Source: a virus
Lineage: Duplodnaviria; Heunggongvirae; Uroviricota; Caudoviricetes
Length of the DNA stretch: 35,147 bases
Virus record (IMG/VR): IMGVR_UViG_2802429245_000015
Reading direction: 5' to 3' (one strand)
Below the pieces are notes generated by a model. The model saw only the letters and a program-made list of their open reading frames with translations, made no database searches and had not been told where the DNA came from. Positions 7,641-26,923 of this stretch are shown piece by piece (the first letter of the stretch is position 1; each line of letters starts with the position of its first letter). The position numbers and the translations under genes are program-made.

Positions 7641-8049
7641 TTGTGAGCGTGGTTTTGTCCGGGCGGGTTAACACCACCTGAAAGGCAATACGGTCAGGGA
7701 CGATGATTCTGGCCGTGACGGTGGCGTTACGGGCGTAACCGGCCCGCAGCAGCGGTTGCATGGACAGCCGCGCGTAATCTTCCACACGCAGGCGGACATC
7801 TTCCGTCAGCTTTTCACGCTCAAGCAGCCACAGGCGGGAACCCCACGAAAAATCGCTGTACGTGTCGCCCGGCCAGCCGCGCGGGTCGCCAGAGCCGTCA
7901 GGAATGACATCATCGTCATCAGCACGGGCATCGGTGAAAAGGCAGATAAGAACCTGAGTGACCAGCCCCTCATCCAGTGAGAGGCCGTTATGGGTGACGG
8001 TGATGTCACCCCGTGAGAGCATGTTATTCCAGCGGATTCCTGTCGTCAT
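7597..8049 (-). CDS. baseplate protein (Mu gp46-like)
   Basis: 150 aa between the V-like and J-like genes. Confidence 0.5.
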   Translation of the reverse strand: MTTGIRWNNMLSRGDITVTHNGLSLDEGLVTQVLICLFTDARADDDDVIPDGSGDPRGWPGDTYSDFSWGSRLWLLEREKLTEDVRLRVEDYARLSMQPLLRAGYARNATVTARIIVPDRIAFQVVLTRPDKTTLTIEITRRWEATINAV

Positions 8050-8582
8050 ACGGGCGGTGATGTATTCTCATTGTCGCCGTCCTTATGAATATGTTCGCTG
8101 AAAGATTTGCCGTTGATGGTGATGTCTTCAGTAAAATCACAGGGGCCGACGAATTTCATTTGTCCGCTGATGATATTCAGCAATTCGTCGGCAGTGAGAT
8201 TTACCGCTTTCCCTGAAAAGTCTAATTGTTCTCCTGTGATTTCAATGATGCCGCCTTCCTTCAGGGTGATGTGTGATTTGCCGTCCTGGTGATACAGCCG
8301 GACGTCGCCGGGGGACAGCCCTTTCGGGCGACATCGCTTATCCTCCACCGCGATGGCAACCAGCCCGTCACGCCGCCCGCTAACGGCCAGCACTATGGCT
8401 TCAGAACCTTCCGGCGGCACGGATGTAAAACCGTAGTTCTGGAAGCGTTCCACGTCGTCGTCGGTGGCATCTGCCAGCGTCTGGATTTGCAGGTTCTGCC
8501 GCTCCAGACTGTCAGACACCATGCGGACAATGGCACGGTCAACCATCAACCGCAGACGGCGGGCAATGGCGTTTAATCCCAT
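8046..8582 (-). CDS. baseplate assembly/spike protein V-like (Mu gp45-like)
   Basis: 178 aa; position and size. Confidence 0.55.
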   Translation of the reverse strand: MGLNAIARRLRLMVDRAIVRMVSDSLERQNLQIQTLADATDDDVERFQNYGFTSVPPEGSEAIVLAVSGRRDGLVAIAVEDKRCRPKGLSPGDVRLYHQDGKSHITLKEGGIIEITGEQLDFSGKAVNLTADELLNIISGQMKFVGPCDFTEDITINGKSFSEHIHKDGDNENTSPPV

Positions 8583-15313: not shown

Positions 15314-15890
15314 GGATCACGTCGTTAATTTCAGTGTGTTCGCCGCAGCGCAGCGTTGCCCCGAGGCGCAGGAAGTCCGGGAGCGCGGCGAGATCAATCT
15401 CTTCATCCAGCCGAAATTCCTGCTCCCACGTCACCGCCCACATGGTGACACCCAGCCCGTCGAGGCTGGCGGAGTAAATGTTGTCTGCCCGTACATCAGC
15501 AGCCAGGCGTTCAGCCCCCATGCCCGCTGTGGCATCCGACGACAGCAGACGTTTGATCACCTTTCCGGCCAGTACTTCACAGCGCACGTCGCGGGAATAC
15601 CCCCACGAATCCGTCGCCATGATGTAAGCCACCCAGGTAACCAGACCGGACAGCCCACCGCGCGGGTTGATATCCCGGACACGCAGGGCAGCTACCCGGA
15701 TACAGCCGGTGCGACCGGACATATAGCGTTTGACTTCCTCCGGGCTGTTAAACTGGCCGATGTGACGCTCCACCACATCAGCCCGGTCTGGGGTGTCCCC
15801 CTGAAGGGCCGTTTGCAGCCAGGCCACAATGCGCTCTGCGGCCGCAACGGTGCTCCCCGGTGTGCGCAGTTCAGGGCGTTGTTCTGTCAT
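15279..15890 (-). CDS. virion/tail protein (Mu gp38-like by position)
   Basis: 203-aa ORF in the head-tail joining block. Confidence 0.45.
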   Translation of the reverse strand: MTEQRPELRTPGSTVAAAERIVAWLQTALQGDTPDRADVVERHIGQFNSPEEVKRYMSGRTGCIRVAALRVRDINPRGGLSGLVTWVAYIMATDSWGYSRDVRCEVLAGKVIKRLLSSDATAGMGAERLAADVRADNIYSASLDGLGVTMWAVTWEQEFRLDEEIDLAALPDFLRLGATLRCGEHTEINDVIHVRGDDGTETD

Positions 15891-16432
15891 GGCAGAACCT
15901 CCTTCCAGAAATGACTGATAACCTGTTGCAGCTCCTGCTGATTGGCAGAAGACAGCCCCAGAAATTCACGTTGCGGAATGTTCATCATGCGGTTATGTGC
16001 GCCGACGGTCTGCCAGACCGGATATTTCAGCGCCCGCCCGAAACACTGCGAGATAAGCCGTTTGTGGGCTCTGACCGGCACACTGCCGGAAAAGCCGTCA
16101 TTCATGATGCGGGCATAATCCAGCGGTGAACCGATACGCACCACGCGGTTTTCCACGATGTACTGGATACTCTCCAGCAGATGGCCTTCACCGCGCAGCA
16201 GACTCTGGTTGCCGTGGCGGGTCTTTTTGTACCCGTCAGACCAGTCTGGCCAGCGTTCGCCACCCGGACTGGTTTTCTCATCGATGATGCGGCGGCGGGT
16301 CTGTGATTCCACCACCGCACCGATGCTCTCCAGCAGCTCTGCCTGCAATGAACCATCTGCCAGCTTTTCAACGGCGCGGCGGATATCCTCCAGACGCTGG
16401 TCACCGCTGACCTGTACAGAAATCCCCATCAC
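15887..16432 (-). CDS. virion morphogenesis protein (Mu gp37-like by position)
   Basis: 181-aa ORF, overlapping stop/start with neighbours. Confidence 0.45.
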   Translation of the reverse strand: MMGISVQVSGDQRLEDIRRAVEKLADGSLQAELLESIGAVVESQTRRRIIDEKTSPGGERWPDWSDGYKKTRHGNQSLLRGEGHLLESIQYIVENRVVRIGSPLDYARIMNDGFSGSVPVRAHKRLISQCFGRALKYPVWQTVGAHNRMMNIPQREFLGLSSANQQELQQVISHFWKEVLP

Positions 16433-17258: not shown

Positions 17259-18161
17259 TTATGCCGGGGTGGTGATGAACGGACTGACCACGATGTCCAC
17301 ATCCTTGTACCAGATGTTGGAATCGCCGCCGTTAACCAGCATGGCGTCAATGATGCGCTTCGCGGCTGCACGGTTTTTCGGCCCCACCACAAGGGTGGTC
17401 GGGCGGATGCCCAGCGGTTCACCGTTGGTGGTCTTCATACCCAGCAGCAGATTGCTGGCCTTCTCGTAGTTCTCCGCTGTCAGTGCCGCACGGGAACCGA
17501 CGGCGGTCTGCCAGAAGCCGAAGCCCGCATTGCAGCGACCGTCCACCCCGTAAAGGAACTCGTTATTCTTGAAGGTGTGCTCGCTGTTCAGATCATCCAG
17601 GGCTTCAAACTTAAAGGCGCGTCGCGTCTGCCAGATGATGGGTTTCAGTACCTGAGAATCATCAATCAGAAACCACGGTTCCCCCTGGTCTGATGCCGGG
17701 GTGCCGACAACGTTGCTGTATGTGCCGTCGCCCAGCGGGTGGTCTTCATCAAAGAAGTTCTGACCGTCAAAACACAGGGTGTTAAACCCGGCACACAGCA
17801 GGGGGTAACACAGCTTGTCCGGGAACTCCGACGTCTGGCGGCCATAGCGTTCAGCGATAATGCTGTACTGACCAATCTGATCGTCTTCAATGTGTTCGCG
17901 TTTAACGCGGATCGAACTTTCCCAGGTTTTGTTCGCAAGGGTGTAACCATAACCGTCCAGCGTTGCCATCTGACGGGCGCTGACCCATTCCTTAATCTCC
18001 GGTAAATCTTTCATCCAGCCGTAGGTATTGGAGGCGGACGAACTCGGGATTTCAGAGGCGATGCGCTGCCACTGTGGGGTGACACCACTCAGCCCACGGG
18101 TATAAGCGGCGCTCAGACAGGTGGTCAGCGCGTGAAGGACTTCGGAAGTGACTGCTCCCAT
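17259..18161 (-). CDS. major head (capsid) protein (Mu T-like)
   Basis: 300 aa, directly after the I-like gene with a 1-nt start/stop overlap, followed by a stem-loop; size and position. Confidence 0.75.
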   Translation of the reverse strand: MGAVTSEVLHALTTCLSAAYTRGLSGVTPQWQRIASEIPSSSASNTYGWMKDLPEIKEWVSARQMATLDGYGYTLANKTWESSIRVKREHIEDDQIGQYSIIAERYGRQTSEFPDKLCYPLLCAGFNTLCFDGQNFFDEDHPLGDGTYSNVVGTPASDQGEPWFLIDDSQVLKPIIWQTRRAFKFEALDDLNSEHTFKNNEFLYGVDGRCNAGFGFWQTAVGSRAALTAENYEKASNLLLGMKTTNGEPLGIRPTTLVVGPKNRAAAKRIIDAMLVNGGDSNIWYKDVDIVVSPFITTPA

Positions 18162-19123
18162 CAGTTATTCTCCTGTTTAGGTTTAGCGGCGAGGAACTCT
18201 TCCCCGGTAATACCCATGCTGCGGCACATCGCCAGTTCGGCGTCGGTCAGTGTCTGCGCGGGTTTATCCTTGCCCTGGCTGGGCTTGTCGTTGTTCACCA
18301 GCGGCTGTGCACCTTTGGTGTACTCCGCAAACTGTTTGCGGCCTTCTTCCGTACGGCAGGTGGCAAGGAACATGTCACGGTTTGCCGGGGCCACTTTTCC
18401 GGCTTCGATGGCCGCATCCACAAGCGCTTCTGCTTCCTTCTCTTCCAGTTGCTGAAGGCGTTGTTCTGCGGTTTCGGCACGGTTCAGTGCCAGATTGTGG
18501 GTTTCCACCGGCACAAACTTCGTCAGATCAGGTGTCTGTGCGCGGTTCAGCGCCACCTGTTCGCTCTCCTGAAGTTGTTTAATGGCGGCCACGGTATCGT
18601 CCACCGTGGCAGATTCAGCCAGCCCAAGCAGGCCGGTGATTTGCACAGGTACTGTCATCGGGTTTTTCTCCGTATTCAGTGCAGGAAAATCCAGGTTAGG
18701 TTTGTTGGTCAGCCCGACGCTGGACAGGCGCGTCACCACACCGTCTGCGTCAAAGAAAAACGCCGGGCTGTAATAGCGGTAACGGCGTTCGCTCAGCATC
18801 CACCGGGCGTACTCGCTCCAGACAACACGGCCTTCAATGGTGCCGCTGTCCGTCACGCGCAGTTCTTCCACCCAGCCATACGCCGGGGCTTCATCACCGC
18901 GTTGCCCTTTAATTTCGGTGGCGTGTTCAATGTCCACCGGAATTTTGATGTCGGACGAACGGGTGACCACCTCATGCGGATTGCGGTTAATCCACGTCCG
19001 GCCATCGCGCCCGGTGAACTCACCCGCAGGGACGAGTTCAAGCCATTCCGGCAGTTGAGCAGGTGTCAGCTCAGGGATGGGTTCTGGCAGGGAAAAACAC
19101 AGCGCCAGCAGTTCCGGTTGCAT
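18161..19123 (-). CDS. head maturation protease/scaffold (Mu I-like)
   Basis: 320 aa with a coiled-coil, charged C-terminal half; position upstream of the capsid gene. Confidence 0.65.
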   Translation of the reverse strand: MQPELLALCFSLPEPIPELTPAQLPEWLELVPAGEFTGRDGRTWINRNPHEVVTRSSDIKIPVDIEHATEIKGQRGDEAPAYGWVEELRVTDSGTIEGRVVWSEYARWMLSERRYRYYSPAFFFDADGVVTRLSSVGLTNKPNLDFPALNTEKNPMTVPVQITGLLGLAESATVDDTVAAIKQLQESEQVALNRAQTPDLTKFVPVETHNLALNRAETAEQRLQQLEEKEAEALVDAAIEAGKVAPANRDMFLATCRTEEGRKQFAEYTKGAQPLVNNDKPSQGKDKPAQTLTDAELAMCRSMGITGEEFLAAKPKQENN

Positions 19124-19172
19124 GTCAGTCTCCGTCGTTTGGGGTTACCGACGGTCAGTATGCGGAAGGCAG

Positions 19173-19198
19173 AAAAAAAGCCGGATTTACCGGCTTCA
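19173..19198 (-). terminator. hairpin plus A/T-run element (intrinsic terminator and/or late-promoter motif), copy 1
   Basis: aaaaaaagccggatttaccggcttca, identical to 26894-26919. On the minus strand this reads gaagccggtaaatccggc followed by T7. Confidence 0.5.
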
Positions 19199-19337
19199 CT
19201 GAAAACGGGAAGAACACCCCCTTCAAAACCCCTTCAAAAACGCCACAGCATCTTCAAAAACGTCTGAGTGCACATTCACGCCATCAGAATAAAAAACGCG
19301 TTTCTGATGCGTTTCAGGGGGATTTACGGCGGGAGGG

Positions 19338-20102
19338 TTACTCACTGTCAAAACGGGCCTGTTTTGTCGCCAGCTGGCGCGCCAGCTCCTGCTCACGGTT
19401 TATGCCGGGATTGTAGTTCCAGCCCGGATCAATCCCTTCCGGCACATCTTCCTCTTCGCCCGTGCGTTTGTTCACCCAGCGGACAGTTCTGATTTCCGGC
19501 GCTTCGGTATGAATGGTGCCCTGTGCCGCCAGTTGCGCATACTCACCACGGCTGACCTGACGAATGGTGCATTTGCAGCCCCAGCCGTTAGGCGCAAAAT
19601 GCGTCTGCCAGAACGGGTGGTCTGTCGGCAGACACAGACGCGCCCATTTCACATGCTCCGCCCGGTGCTCACGGGATGGCCCCAGCTCATAAATCAGATA
19701 CGGCATGGCCCGCTTTGTCCGCTGAATGCGTTCCCACTGGCCCGCCGCGCGGGCGGTGCGCATGTTGGTGTCAAAAATCGTGCGGAGGCGGCGGTCGCTG
19801 CCCAGTTGCACGGTGCGGGTTTCACCCGTCAGCGGATCATCCATCTCCTGTACGCCCCACCATCCGCGTTTTATCAGCAACGGTTGCAGCATCTCCCGGA
19901 ACTCGCTGAACGTCTGCCCGCTTTGCAGGGCGTCTTCCACAAGGGCTTTCACATCCGACAACAAATCCAGTTGCAGCATTTTTGCCACGGTGAAGCTGTT
20001 CCGGTGTTCTTCCCGCCATACATCCCGGTAATCAAAACCGGGGCGCAGCTTCTTCGCCTTCAGCCACGCCAGCGCCTCTTTCGGGATGAGGGTTTCACGC
20101 AT
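19338..20102 (-). CDS. head morphogenesis protein (Mu F-like)
   Basis: ATG at 20100-20102 (MRETLIPKEALAWLK...) overlapping the portal stop; the track ORF extends 19 codons further upstream; position after the portal. Confidence 0.65.
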   Translation of the reverse strand: MRETLIPKEALAWLKAKKLRPGFDYRDVWREEHRNSFTVAKMLQLDLLSDVKALVEDALQSGQTFSEFREMLQPLLIKRGWWGVQEMDDPLTGETRTVQLGSDRRLRTIFDTNMRTARAAGQWERIQRTKRAMPYLIYELGPSREHRAEHVKWARLCLPTDHPFWQTHFAPNGWGCKCTIRQVSRGEYAQLAAQGTIHTEAPEIRTVRWVNKRTGEEEDVPEGIDPGWNYNPGINREQELARQLATKQARFDSE

Positions 20103-21666
20103 GGCCGGTGTCCCCCAGCGCACGCGCCTTAAAGCACACCTCCGCCAGTTGCAGGGCAAAGTCGTCCGCGTTCAGCGTTTCCTGAAGCTCAGGCAGGCGT
20201 TTCAGAAAGTCATCAAAACTGTCGCATTCCTGCGCCAGTGTCAGCACCGGGTTCGTGAACGCCTCGCCGGTTTTCTGCCAGTCACGCAGGGCATCATCCA
20301 CCATCTGTGCCAGTTCGTCGGGGTGTTCCCGGTTCAGGGCGACGCGCTCGCGGTTCATCGCCATATCACCCGGCATCCCGGCAGAAACCGGATGCAGAAC
20401 ATCAGCCCCGTCGTCCGGTTCAGCCAGGCCGAACCGGTCCCGCAGCTCCGATTCCTGAACCCGCATCCCCCGGTCAATCAGCGGCACCAGAGCATCTGTC
20501 AGCGCCTTCAGATCTTCCGCTTCACTGATACGCAGAACAACACGGGGGTAGTGCGCCTGTGGCCCGTAATTGGCCTCGATATAGGGACGCACCAGATATT
20601 CATTCAGCGTGTTAGCCAGCTGTCGCGCGTCCCAGCGCACAATGTCCATGCGCACCTGATTGTGCACGTCCGCCTGTGAGCGCGAACTGCCGTTATCCGT
20701 GGTCATGGTCTGCCCCAGCACGGCTTTACTGATTTGCGCATCACACCATTCCGCCATTTCACGGAACAGTGCGCCGCCGTTATTCCTGCTGGCGGTTTCC
20801 TTCATCTCCAGTTGCATGGACTGCGGAATGGCACACCCGGCATCCGAGGCAATGGAGGCAATCGCATCAATCAGCACGCGGATTTGCTCCTCCGTGGCGT
20901 TGGGACCGTATTTCCCCACCGTAACCGGAATGCCGAATTTTTCCGCAAATGCCCACCAGTCGCGCACGGTAAAGGATTTCAGCATGTACATCACCGCCAC
21001 CAGACGGGCCAGACCGTTACGCAGCGGCAGACCGGATTTCAGACGCGGCTGGTGAACAATGAATTTTCCCGGTGTCAGCGGTACGCCATCCACCGGTTCA
21101 TCGTCAGTCAGCAGGCGGAACTGGCGCAGCGTGGGTTTTTCGGCTTTCAGAAAACGGGGATCAACCCACTCATAATCACGGGGCACCCAGTGGTTGTTGC
21201 GGGTGTTCCACAAAATTTCACAGACCGCCACGCCTTTTCCCAGCCCGTCGAGCAGATCAAACATCAGCTCAGGGATTTGCGGTGCCTCCATCAGTGCACG
21301 GATGGCGTCCGCCAGTTGCACGTCAGCATCGTCATCACTGGCGGCCACCACCACCGGTTCGATACCCGCCACCGTCAGCTTGCGGGTGCGCAGTACCGAG
21401 GCGTAATGCAAATCGCGTTCTTCCATCTCTTCAGCAAGGATAAAAAAATCACGCGTGATGCCGTCAGTAGCATTGCGCAGAATGCCTGCCAGCCTGCCGG
21501 GGTTCAGCCCGGAGGCGACGCTGATACCCGGCGAGGCCGAACGCACACCGGCATGACGCGGACGGGCCTGTGCTTCGTTGAGCGCCTCTTTTTTCAGCGT
21601 GTCTTCCTCACCGGTTGCCGGGTTCAGCAGACGGCGAACGGCCCCGGCCAGTTGTTTCAGGTTCAC
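20095..21666 (-). CDS. portal protein (Mu H/gp29-like)
   Basis: 523 aa immediately downstream of the large terminase with overlapping stop/start. Confidence 0.7.
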   Translation of the reverse strand: MNLKQLAGAVRRLLNPATGEEDTLKKEALNEAQARPRHAGVRSASPGISVASGLNPGRLAGILRNATDGITRDFFILAEEMEERDLHYASVLRTRKLTVAGIEPVVVAASDDDADVQLADAIRALMEAPQIPELMFDLLDGLGKGVAVCEILWNTRNNHWVPRDYEWVDPRFLKAEKPTLRQFRLLTDDEPVDGVPLTPGKFIVHQPRLKSGLPLRNGLARLVAVMYMLKSFTVRDWWAFAEKFGIPVTVGKYGPNATEEQIRVLIDAIASIASDAGCAIPQSMQLEMKETASRNNGGALFREMAEWCDAQISKAVLGQTMTTDNGSSRSQADVHNQVRMDIVRWDARQLANTLNEYLVRPYIEANYGPQAHYPRVVLRISEAEDLKALTDALVPLIDRGMRVQESELRDRFGLAEPDDGADVLHPVSAGMPGDMAMNRERVALNREHPDELAQMVDDALRDWQKTGEAFTNPVLTLAQECDSFDDFLKRLPELQETLNADDFALQLAEVCFKARALGDTGHA

Positions 21667-26849: not shown

Positions 26850-26878
26850 TGAAGCAGATTTAAACGTGGTCTGCTTCA
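26850..26878 (-). promoter_or_regulatory. dyad/hairpin in the endolysin leader
   Basis: tgaagcaga (26850-26858) / tctgcttca (26870-26878) with an 11-nt loop, ending 9 nt upstream of the endolysin Shine-Dalgarno/ATG. Confidence 0.4.
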
Positions 26879-26893
26879 TGGTGCCGGAGGCAT

Positions 26894-26919
26894 AAAAAAA
26901 GCCGGATTTACCGGCTTCA
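26894..26919 (-). terminator. hairpin plus A/T-run element, copy 2 (intrinsic terminator after mor, comparable to Mu t9.2)
   Basis: Identical 26-mer to 19173-19198, starting 5 bp after the mor stop. Confidence 0.55.
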
Positions 26920-26923
26920 TTGA

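Follow-up and report, generated by a model that had tools for sequence, protein, structure and literature searches.

The intergenic gap between genes F and I of a Mu-like Escherichia coli prophage raises the question of whether transposable phages other than Mu carry a strong gyrase site (SGS) near the middle of their genomes. The Mu SGS is the strongest gyrase site known and a standard substrate in structural and single-molecule work on gyrase. It is needed for rapid replicative transposition, must occupy a central position and aids synapsis of the prophage ends (PMC10052514); the generality of such sites among transposable phages was called unresolved in 2021 (PMC8705779). A sequence-only reading had proposed that the F-I gap holds a candidate central gyrase site. 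The analysis described below indicates that the 214-bp gap probably holds a counterpart of the Mu central SGS, followed by a predicted late promoter, activated by Mor, that would also act as a terminator. Both are new examples of known elements rather than elements of a new kind.

The stretch of DNA analysed (35,147 nucleotides, referred to as the window) is bounded by the stop codons of mom (position 1) and of the repressor gene (35147), and all of its structural genes are on the minus strand. Read on this strand, the gap presents in succession the F stop codon, an SGS-like element, a putative promoter/terminator with a Mor box, a leader and the start of I (Table 1). In blocks, the window shares 93-98% identity (approximately 97%) with a prophage that resides in potE of E. 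coli STEC383. When the ends of the STEC383 prophage are used as reference, the gap falls about 46-47% of the way from the repressor end, compared with 48.7% for the Mu SGS; its placement near the prophage middle, part of the sequence-only reading, is therefore upheld. Of 5,426 complete E. coli genomes, 46 contain the gap over at least 80% of its length, with an identity of 90-99%. No RefSeq annotation lies inside the gap in 47 genomes carrying it whole. BLAST comparison with phage records returned matches to the flanking coding DNA only and none within the gap, while a search of genome contigs with protein I yielded a single locus, in Brenneria. The prophage family as such is present in 56 of the 5,426 genomes, a single genome having as many as four matching places, and one copy lies on a 136-kb plasmid (NZ_CP012497); multiple places per genome and a plasmid copy are consistent with active transposition. 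In the window, positions 1 to approximately 950 contain com and mom with an upstream region resembling Mu Pmom and its GATC cluster, and the C gene is absent.

Table 1. Coordinates of the features of the F-I gap and of related loci in the window.
Feature	Position	Strand	Description
F-I intergenic gap, 214 bp	19124-19337	minus	between I and the F stop at 19338
Gene F, PF04233	19338-20102 (RefSeq start, 254 aa) or to 20159	minus	
H/portal	20095-21666	minus	
Gene I, head protease/scaffold	18161-19123	minus	ATG at 19123
T, major head	17259-18161	minus	
SGS-like element	19204-19325	minus	sole window match of the 60-phage array profile, E = 1.9e-6
Left-arm segment	19282-19315	minus	two GAAACGC and an 8-bp inverted repeat CATCAGAA/TTCTGATG around a T6 run
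Predicted gyrase cut, gene strand between 19274 and 19273	19270-19274	minus	ungapped alignment with Mu 17879/17880
Right-arm repeat 1, TTTTTGAAG	19252-19260	minus	aligns with Mu TTTTAAAAC
Right-arm repeat 2, TTTTTGAAG	19232-19240	minus	20 bp past repeat 1; aligns with Mu TTTTTAAAC
Right-arm repeat 3, GTTTTGAAG	19221-19229	minus	11 bp past repeat 2; aligns with Mu TATTTAAC
Mor-binding-type 16-mer, AGTGA-AGCCGG-TAAAT	19185-19200	minus	14/16 vs Mu Pm AGTAAAGCCGGTTAAT (-51 to -36)
GC-rich hairpin and T7, GAAGCCGGTAAATCCGGCTTTTTTT (25 nt)	19173-19197	minus	intrinsic-terminator form; overlaps the Mor box as in Mu Pm
Candidate -10 hexamer, CATACT	19157-19162	minus	22 nt past the Mor element, equal to the Pm spacing
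Leader	19130-19154	minus	inverted repeat CCGTCG (19154-19149)/CGACGG (19137-19132); Shine-Dalgarno GGAG (19133-19130)
Second Mor-box promoter/terminator	26878-26921	minus	AATGAAGCCGGTAAAT, 22 nt, CACCAT; exact copy of the hairpin at 26894-26918
Mor orthologue, 149 aa	26924-27373	minus	61% identical to Mu Mor (E = 3e-62), 31% to Mu C; PF08765
Distant G-family gene	15887-16432	minus	PF05069, E = 4.5e-15; 24% identical to Mu G

The gap contains no credible gene. The sequence-only reading had described it as devoid of ORFs longer than about 15 codons, and this needs correction in its letter: a mechanical ORF list includes a 23-codon ORF with a TTG start on the gene strand (19155-19226), as well as antisense ORFs of 41-272 aa that enter or cross the gap, all of which are unsupported. 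The same reading had noted that gene G, which separates F from I in Mu, is missing here. Indeed, the sole PF05069 gene among the ORFs tested is positioned after the gp36 homologue, outside the F-I interval. This gene was also considered as the counterpart of Mu gp37 and rejected, its similarity to gp37 being nil. A layout in which F is followed by a large gap and I, with no G, is common to Shewanella and Vibrio phages. These relatives also share with the window a short form of F, 254 aa in the window against 439 aa in Mu; the window protein matches the PF04233 core only, and Mu F adds a weak MuF_C match (E = 3.6e-4, under the Pfam cutoff).

Within the gap, the octamer CTTCAAAA occurs three times, at 19221-19228, 19232-19239 and 19252-19259 in plus-strand coordinates, with the spacing of 11 and 20 bp that the sequence-only reading had reported; no further copy exists on either strand of the window. 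While these positions are correct, they follow the plus strand, and the genes all use the minus strand, on which the repeats read TTTTGAAG and are separated by 20 and then 11 bp. No other 8-mer of the window forms a non-overlapping triple within 45 bp, and a triple of this kind was obtained in 6 of 20,000 Markov-1 simulations of a 214-bp sequence. A direct repeat of GAAACGC, also pointed out previously, is present on the minus strand (19315-19309 and 19304-19298, 11 bp apart); since this 7-mer occurs 14 times in the window, it carries little weight alone. The inverted repeat of the left-arm segment that harbours it has no T tail and is thus not a typical terminator.

In the Mu reference sequence (AF083977), the SGS cut is annotated at 17879/17880, and the annotated order of elements in the G-I gap is gyrase cut site, terminator and PI. 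Alignment of the window gap with this region revealed similarity, the three repeats matching, ungapped, three A/T motifs of the Mu right arm. Measured between their last bases, the Mu motifs follow one another at 20 and 11 bp, and the first motif has its last base 22 nt beyond the cut. The Mu sequence immediately to the right of the cut is AGCCGCACAGATTTTTTAAAACGCGCCACGGGATTTTTAAACCGGTATTTAACGG, and the gene strand of the window reads GTGCACTCAGACGTTTTTGAAGATGCTGTGGCGTTTTTGAAGGGGTTTTGAAGGGGG; both have the 20/11 spacing, and the phased signals of the window right arm consist, as in Mu, of three motifs made of a T run, a pyrimidine-purine step and an A run. An alignment of eight phages (A1) has a mean column identity of 63% and is ungapped except for a 2-nt offset at one end. 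Mu, TUM9757 and the window family did not contribute to a nhmmer profile derived from 60 non-redundant arrays. In the 36.7-kb Mu genome this profile has a single match, at 17829-17952 (E = 9.6e-7), which is the SGS and agrees with the 133-bp SGS fragment of Sutormin et al., mapped to 17812-17944. In the window, the SGS-like element of about 130 bp that it identifies occupies the space from the F stop to the Mor box. Transferring the Mu cut through the alignment predicts a break with a 4-bp stagger, GTGC at 19273-19270, with a precision of a few bp at best. This homology supports the proposal of a candidate central gyrase site, and we infer from it that gyrase would bind and cleave within the gap.

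The Mu-type prophage of E. coli strains TUM9757, SE11 and PEC422 combines a Mu-like SGS core with a 45-bp array that is 96-98% identical to that of the window family. Its G-I gap reads GATAAAATCACGCGATAAAGAATTTTTGAAGGTTCTGTGGCGTTTTTGAAGGGGTTTTGAAGGGGGT, and at the cut-site position GATAAAATC/ACGC (slash, cut) resembles GCATAAAATC/AGCC of Mu. This prophage has G and a C-type PI promoter and shows 75% identity to Mu across the G-I region; outside the array, its DNA similarity to the window is undetectable (17800-20159 compared).

The array is also retained in more distant phages. Among relatives selected by I-protein similarity, it was found in 29 of 29, once per locus of about 20 kb and always in this gap. 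The repeat cores and the 20/11 spacing are kept in all 19 close relatives selected in the same way, whereas the surrounding and intervening sequence varies. In IMG/VR relatives whose I proteins are about 60% identical, the array takes the form TTAAACGCGCCACAGCGTTTTTAAACGTGTTTTAAAC, with 20/11 spacing and upstream of I. Klebsiella phage Kp4866-3 has an intermediate form, TTAAAC / TTTGAAC / TTTGAAC, at 20/11 in the gap upstream of I, where arrays with the same spacing are present as well in Brenneria, Shewanella MuM16-2 and Vibrio martha. Phages that possess G are also among its carriers. The notion that the repeats arose by chance, or are the decaying remnant of a G deletion, might draw on the fact that G is missing from this position; it is scarcely credible in view of the simulations, of the conservation of cores and spacing in every close relative and of the occurrence of the array in phages with G.

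To gauge the breadth of this distribution, IMG/VR was scanned with the pattern TTRAAS-N13-TTTRAAS-N4-TTTRAAS, which is present in at least 120 places. Mu-like F, G, I or T genes were detected by tblastn in at least 84 of the matches listed. Among these listed matches, 64 have an F or G homologue ending no more than 400 bp upstream, and in 57 an I homologue on the same strand starts downstream at a distance of at most 700 bp (median 102 bp, range 0-451). Carriers of the array include Escherichia, Klebsiella, Brenneria, Shewanella and Vibrio phages, along with at least 84 IMG/VR contigs. In an anchored profile built on 71 non-redundant arrays, further conserved columns are an 'atg' at the Mu cut position, GGTT behind the third motif and, 5-8 bp ahead of the first, an A tract that most relatives have and the window lacks, a point against a gyrase site there. 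In this profile the A/T content rises and falls about every 10-11 bp along about 130 bp. From these comparisons, three T runs each followed by RAAS, spaced 20/11 and placed 16 bp from the cut-aligned core, may be a conserved signature across a broad set of Mu-like phages. In some IMG/VR relatives the distance from the array to I is 440-460 bp, compared with about 100 bp usually, which suggests that small genes have been inserted there; the anti-CRISPR genes of Pseudomonas DMS3 sit at the same array-to-I position.

Degenerate forms of the array may be visible in Pseudomonas DMS3, Alteromonadaceae phage B23 and Ralstonia RS138, in which the profile gives no significant match. By eye, the sequence upstream of I reads GTTAAC / GTTAGAG / GTTAGAA at 10-11 bp in DMS3, TAAAAC-20-TTAAAT-11-TTAAAT in B23 and GTTAAAC-11-GTTAAAT in RS138. 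A functional reference is offered by Sp18 of E. coli O157:H7 Sakai, whose central site, according to a review, can replace the Mu SGS and is the only foreign site among those tried that supported Mu replication (PMC10052514). Sp18 was matched neither by the profile nor by BLAST with the window gap and shows only a loose trio of motifs. As Sp18 reportedly works yet escapes the profile, the profile marks family and not function. By A/T periodicity at 10-11 bp, the window gap ranks in the top 1% of 130-bp segments, with 17 other regions scoring higher, and in the top 2-8% at 60-100 bp, which makes the periodicity suggestive but neither specific nor decisive. A template of weak and strong bases taken from the Topo-Seq consensus was abandoned, as it placed the Mu SGS about 3 SD above the mean but not first in Mu.

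What the array might do can be gathered from work on the Mu right arm. This arm is essential while the left arm is dispensable (PMC13284261); its AT repeats face the C-terminal domain (CTD) of GyrA in a cryo-EM model in which the arm supplies the T segment (PMC11626157), and its repeat motifs induce DNA bending (PMC10052514, a review). These published properties fit the array as the putative functional heart of the site. The variation between TA and TG keeps a flexible pyrimidine-purine step between the T run and the A run. One could argue, on the other hand, that the TTTRAAS motifs are sites of a sequence-specific protein other than gyrase, from the phage or from the host nucleoid, which would organise the prophage centre or regulate late transcription, gyrase being incidental. 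Conservation of the motif (TTTAAAC or TTTGAAS, with a G after most copies, at 20/11) across phages whose I proteins are 45-60% identical is tighter than bendability alone seems to need. However, in Mu the homologous segment lies in the right arm, which gyrase needs in order to act and which wraps on the CTD of GyrA (PMC10052514, PMC13284261, PMC11626157), and the permitted changes (A/G, C/G) preserve the shape made of T run, pyrimidine-purine step and A run. Moreover, the genome-wide analysis of Sutormin et al. revealed no further known protein motifs at the sites of gyrase cleavage, and no candidate protein is known. We consider a protein other than gyrase unlikely. For a gyrase site, motifs conserved so tightly could also result from specific docking on GyrA or on a cofactor, beyond bendability. 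Taken jointly, the 20/11 array as a signature of central gyrase sites, with docking of GyrA or a cofactor and coupling of gyrase to late transcription as possible corollaries, is a reading that we offer tentatively and hold to be rather unlikely.

The I-proximal part of the gap contains the hairpin that the sequence-only reading had located at 19173-19198 and included in the candidate gyrase region. The hairpin is real, with arms at 19178-19184 and 19190-19196 and T7 on the minus strand; nevertheless, it belongs to a predicted Mor-type promoter/terminator, a near-copy of Mu Pm, and not to the gyrase site. The RNA folds into an 8-pair stem with a 5-nt loop followed by U7 (-12.8 kcal/mol, z = -3.5), and both the terminator scan and the fold favour a hairpin terminator for the lys-to-F transcript. 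The second exact copy of the hairpin sequence, for which the chance expectation in the window is zero, is separated by 5 nt (26919-26923) from the Mor gene that precedes it and by 55 nt from the ATG of the lysis gene downstream. Both copies are almost identical to cagtAAAGCCGGTTAATCCGGCTTTTTTTTacgtcctcaaTATCCT of Mu Pm, a sequence that GenBank labels as predicted terminator and as Mor-activated promoter. A Rfam scan of positions 18500-20000 gave a sole match, to sroD (19172-19261, 22 bits, E = 0.18), which together with the strong 3' terminator could be taken to mean that the gap encodes a minus-strand small RNA ending at the hairpin. The score, however, is far under the gathering threshold of 50 bits, no promoter-like site was seen upstream, identity to Pm accounts for the hairpin, and the right stem and the T run are lost in relatives; a small RNA is very improbable.

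One point against a promoter here is that a strong terminator hairpin is located inside the candidate sequence. The published Mor site consists of 16 bp, from -51 to -36, with two 5-bp arms and a GC-rich 6-bp spacer. With the numbering of Pm set from published permanganate-sensitive positions (+1 = AF083977 9224, -10 TATCCT at -13 to -8), the Pm site is AGTAA-AGCCGG-TTAAT and spans the left stem and the loop of the hairpin. Downstream of 42 of 131 distinct arrays, the 16-mer is conserved together with CAYACT 22-23 nt further on. Relatives with about 60% identity in the I protein keep the 16-mer but have lost the right stem and/or the T run, with, for example, ccacctgag or ccgcctttcttcccc in its place. 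Loss of these parts with retention of the 16-mer identifies the promoter as the conserved role; as judged from this comparison, termination would be an added role specific to the window lineage, as at Mu Pm.

A scan of positions 18900-19600 for the sigma-70 consensus found no promoter and no -35, a result that is expected if the promoter is activator-dependent and does not count as positive evidence. The -10 region reads CCGCATACTG in the window and CCGCAAACTG in Mu PI, so that the window CATACT is homologous to CAAACT of PI; in both, 32-33 nt with an inverted repeat follow and then the ATG. Transcription is predicted to start near 19149, within a few nt. The predicted start falls within the 5' arm of the leader inverted repeat. 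The combination of CCGCAnACTG, a 32-33-nt leader with an inverted repeat and the ATG is observed in Mu (AF083977 approximately 18019-18058), in TUM9757 and in the window (19124-19162). By these alignments the putative gap promoter corresponds in position to PI, a Mor box replacing the C box.

The vicinity of this promoter makes it conceivable that the phased T tracts would only boost late transcription upstream of I, as curved DNA or as an UP-like enhancer; relative to the predicted start they occupy about -72 to -110. Mu Pm does have a proximal UP subsite, and the alpha-subunit CTD of RNA polymerase binds just upstream of Mor. Mutations upstream of -57 in Mu Pm, however, have no effect. Furthermore, the distance from the array to I varies between 0 and 451 bp in relatives while its distance to the cut-aligned core is fixed, and in the Mu, Shewanella and Vibrio phages a terminator stands between array and promoter. 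A role of the tracts confined to promoter stimulation is therefore decidedly improbable.

Control of the late genes appears to differ from that of Mu. In the 97%-identical STEC383 prophage, the Mor orthologue is the only annotated gene of the Mor/C family, C being absent. With Mor boxes at the lys and I promoters and no C, the late genes appear to be driven directly by Mor; that is, from the sequence, the lys and I operons would appear to run from Mor without the separate C step of Mu. A third Mor-like 16-mer, AGGGAAAGCGGTAAAT, is present on the minus strand at 8199-8214, inside the baseplate V-like gene (8046-8582); the next gene starts (8049) about 150 bp downstream of it, and about 0.13 such sites are expected by chance per window. 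This site could be an internal late promoter like Mu PP, which lies within gene N.

These elements suggest how the gap might work. The gyrase G segment would bind near 19290-19255 and be cleaved near 19274/19270, in an element spanning approximately 19338-19205. The I-proximal arm with its three TTTTGAAG motifs would wrap around a C-terminal domain of GyrA and offer the T segment, the form of the motifs (T run, pyrimidine-purine step, A run) recurring roughly each one or two helical turns. Processive supercoiling from the prophage centre would join both ends and, as in Mu, lead to transposase synapsis and fast replicative transposition. For the promoter, we infer that the Mor orthologue would bind AGTGAAGCCGGTAAAT as a substitute for the -35 and recruit sigma-70 RNA polymerase to CATACT (promoter 19200-19157), so that I, T and the late genes beyond them would be transcribed from near 19149. 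RNA arriving from upstream would fold into the GC hairpin with U7 at the same place, ending the lys-to-F transcript. The exact copy between the Mor gene and the lysis gene would perform the same two jobs.

The gap can be viewed as a compact version of the Mu G-I control region, in which an SGS homologue is followed by a late promoter/terminator of the Mor type. To our knowledge, very few natural SGS variants have been compared so far; the window family represents one, in which TG steps replace TA at all three right-arm motifs. The pattern and the profile single out the central gap in many Mu-like phages and make the question of generality directly testable. If the array signature is true, possession of a strong gyrase site would be general among transposable phages. 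Mor boxes at the lys and I late promoters, with no C, would make for a two-tier layout compared with the three tiers of Mu. Unlike in Mu, the gyrase footprint would abut the Mor promoter, a difference that counts against a gyrase site; if the array signature is true, gyrase occupancy and late transcription could be coupled.

Comparison with Sp18 brings out a central G-I gap and three TTTAAC-like motifs as common traits, but the Sp18 motifs are spaced by approximately 11 and 11-13 bp. The resemblance to the Mu SGS is closer. Both sites are central in a transposable prophage and directly upstream of a terminator, a late promoter and gene I, and both have three I-proximal A/T motifs at 20/11 bp, a core that aligns round the cut and a match to the same profile. 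They differ in the motifs themselves (TTTTGAAG in the window, TTTTAAAC in Mu), in the upstream neighbour (F in the window, G in Mu) and in coding content, the window element being wholly non-coding whereas the Mu site has its left arm overlapping the end of G; in addition, the right arm abuts the promoter in the window and is about 100 bp away from it in Mu. With Mu Pm the gap promoter shares 14 of 16 positions of the Mor 16-mer, the GC hairpin with its T run, the 22-nt spacing, the lack of a -35 and a phage-encoded Mor. Pm, however, drives the middle operon that ends in C, whereas the two copies in the window, which has no C gene, occupy the sites of the C-dependent Plys and PI of Mu. With Mu PI, finally, it has in common its position, the CCGCAnACTG of the -10 region, the inverted repeat of the leader and the distance of 32-33 nt to the ATG of I; in contrast, the activator site is a C box in the C-dependent PI and a Mor box in the window.
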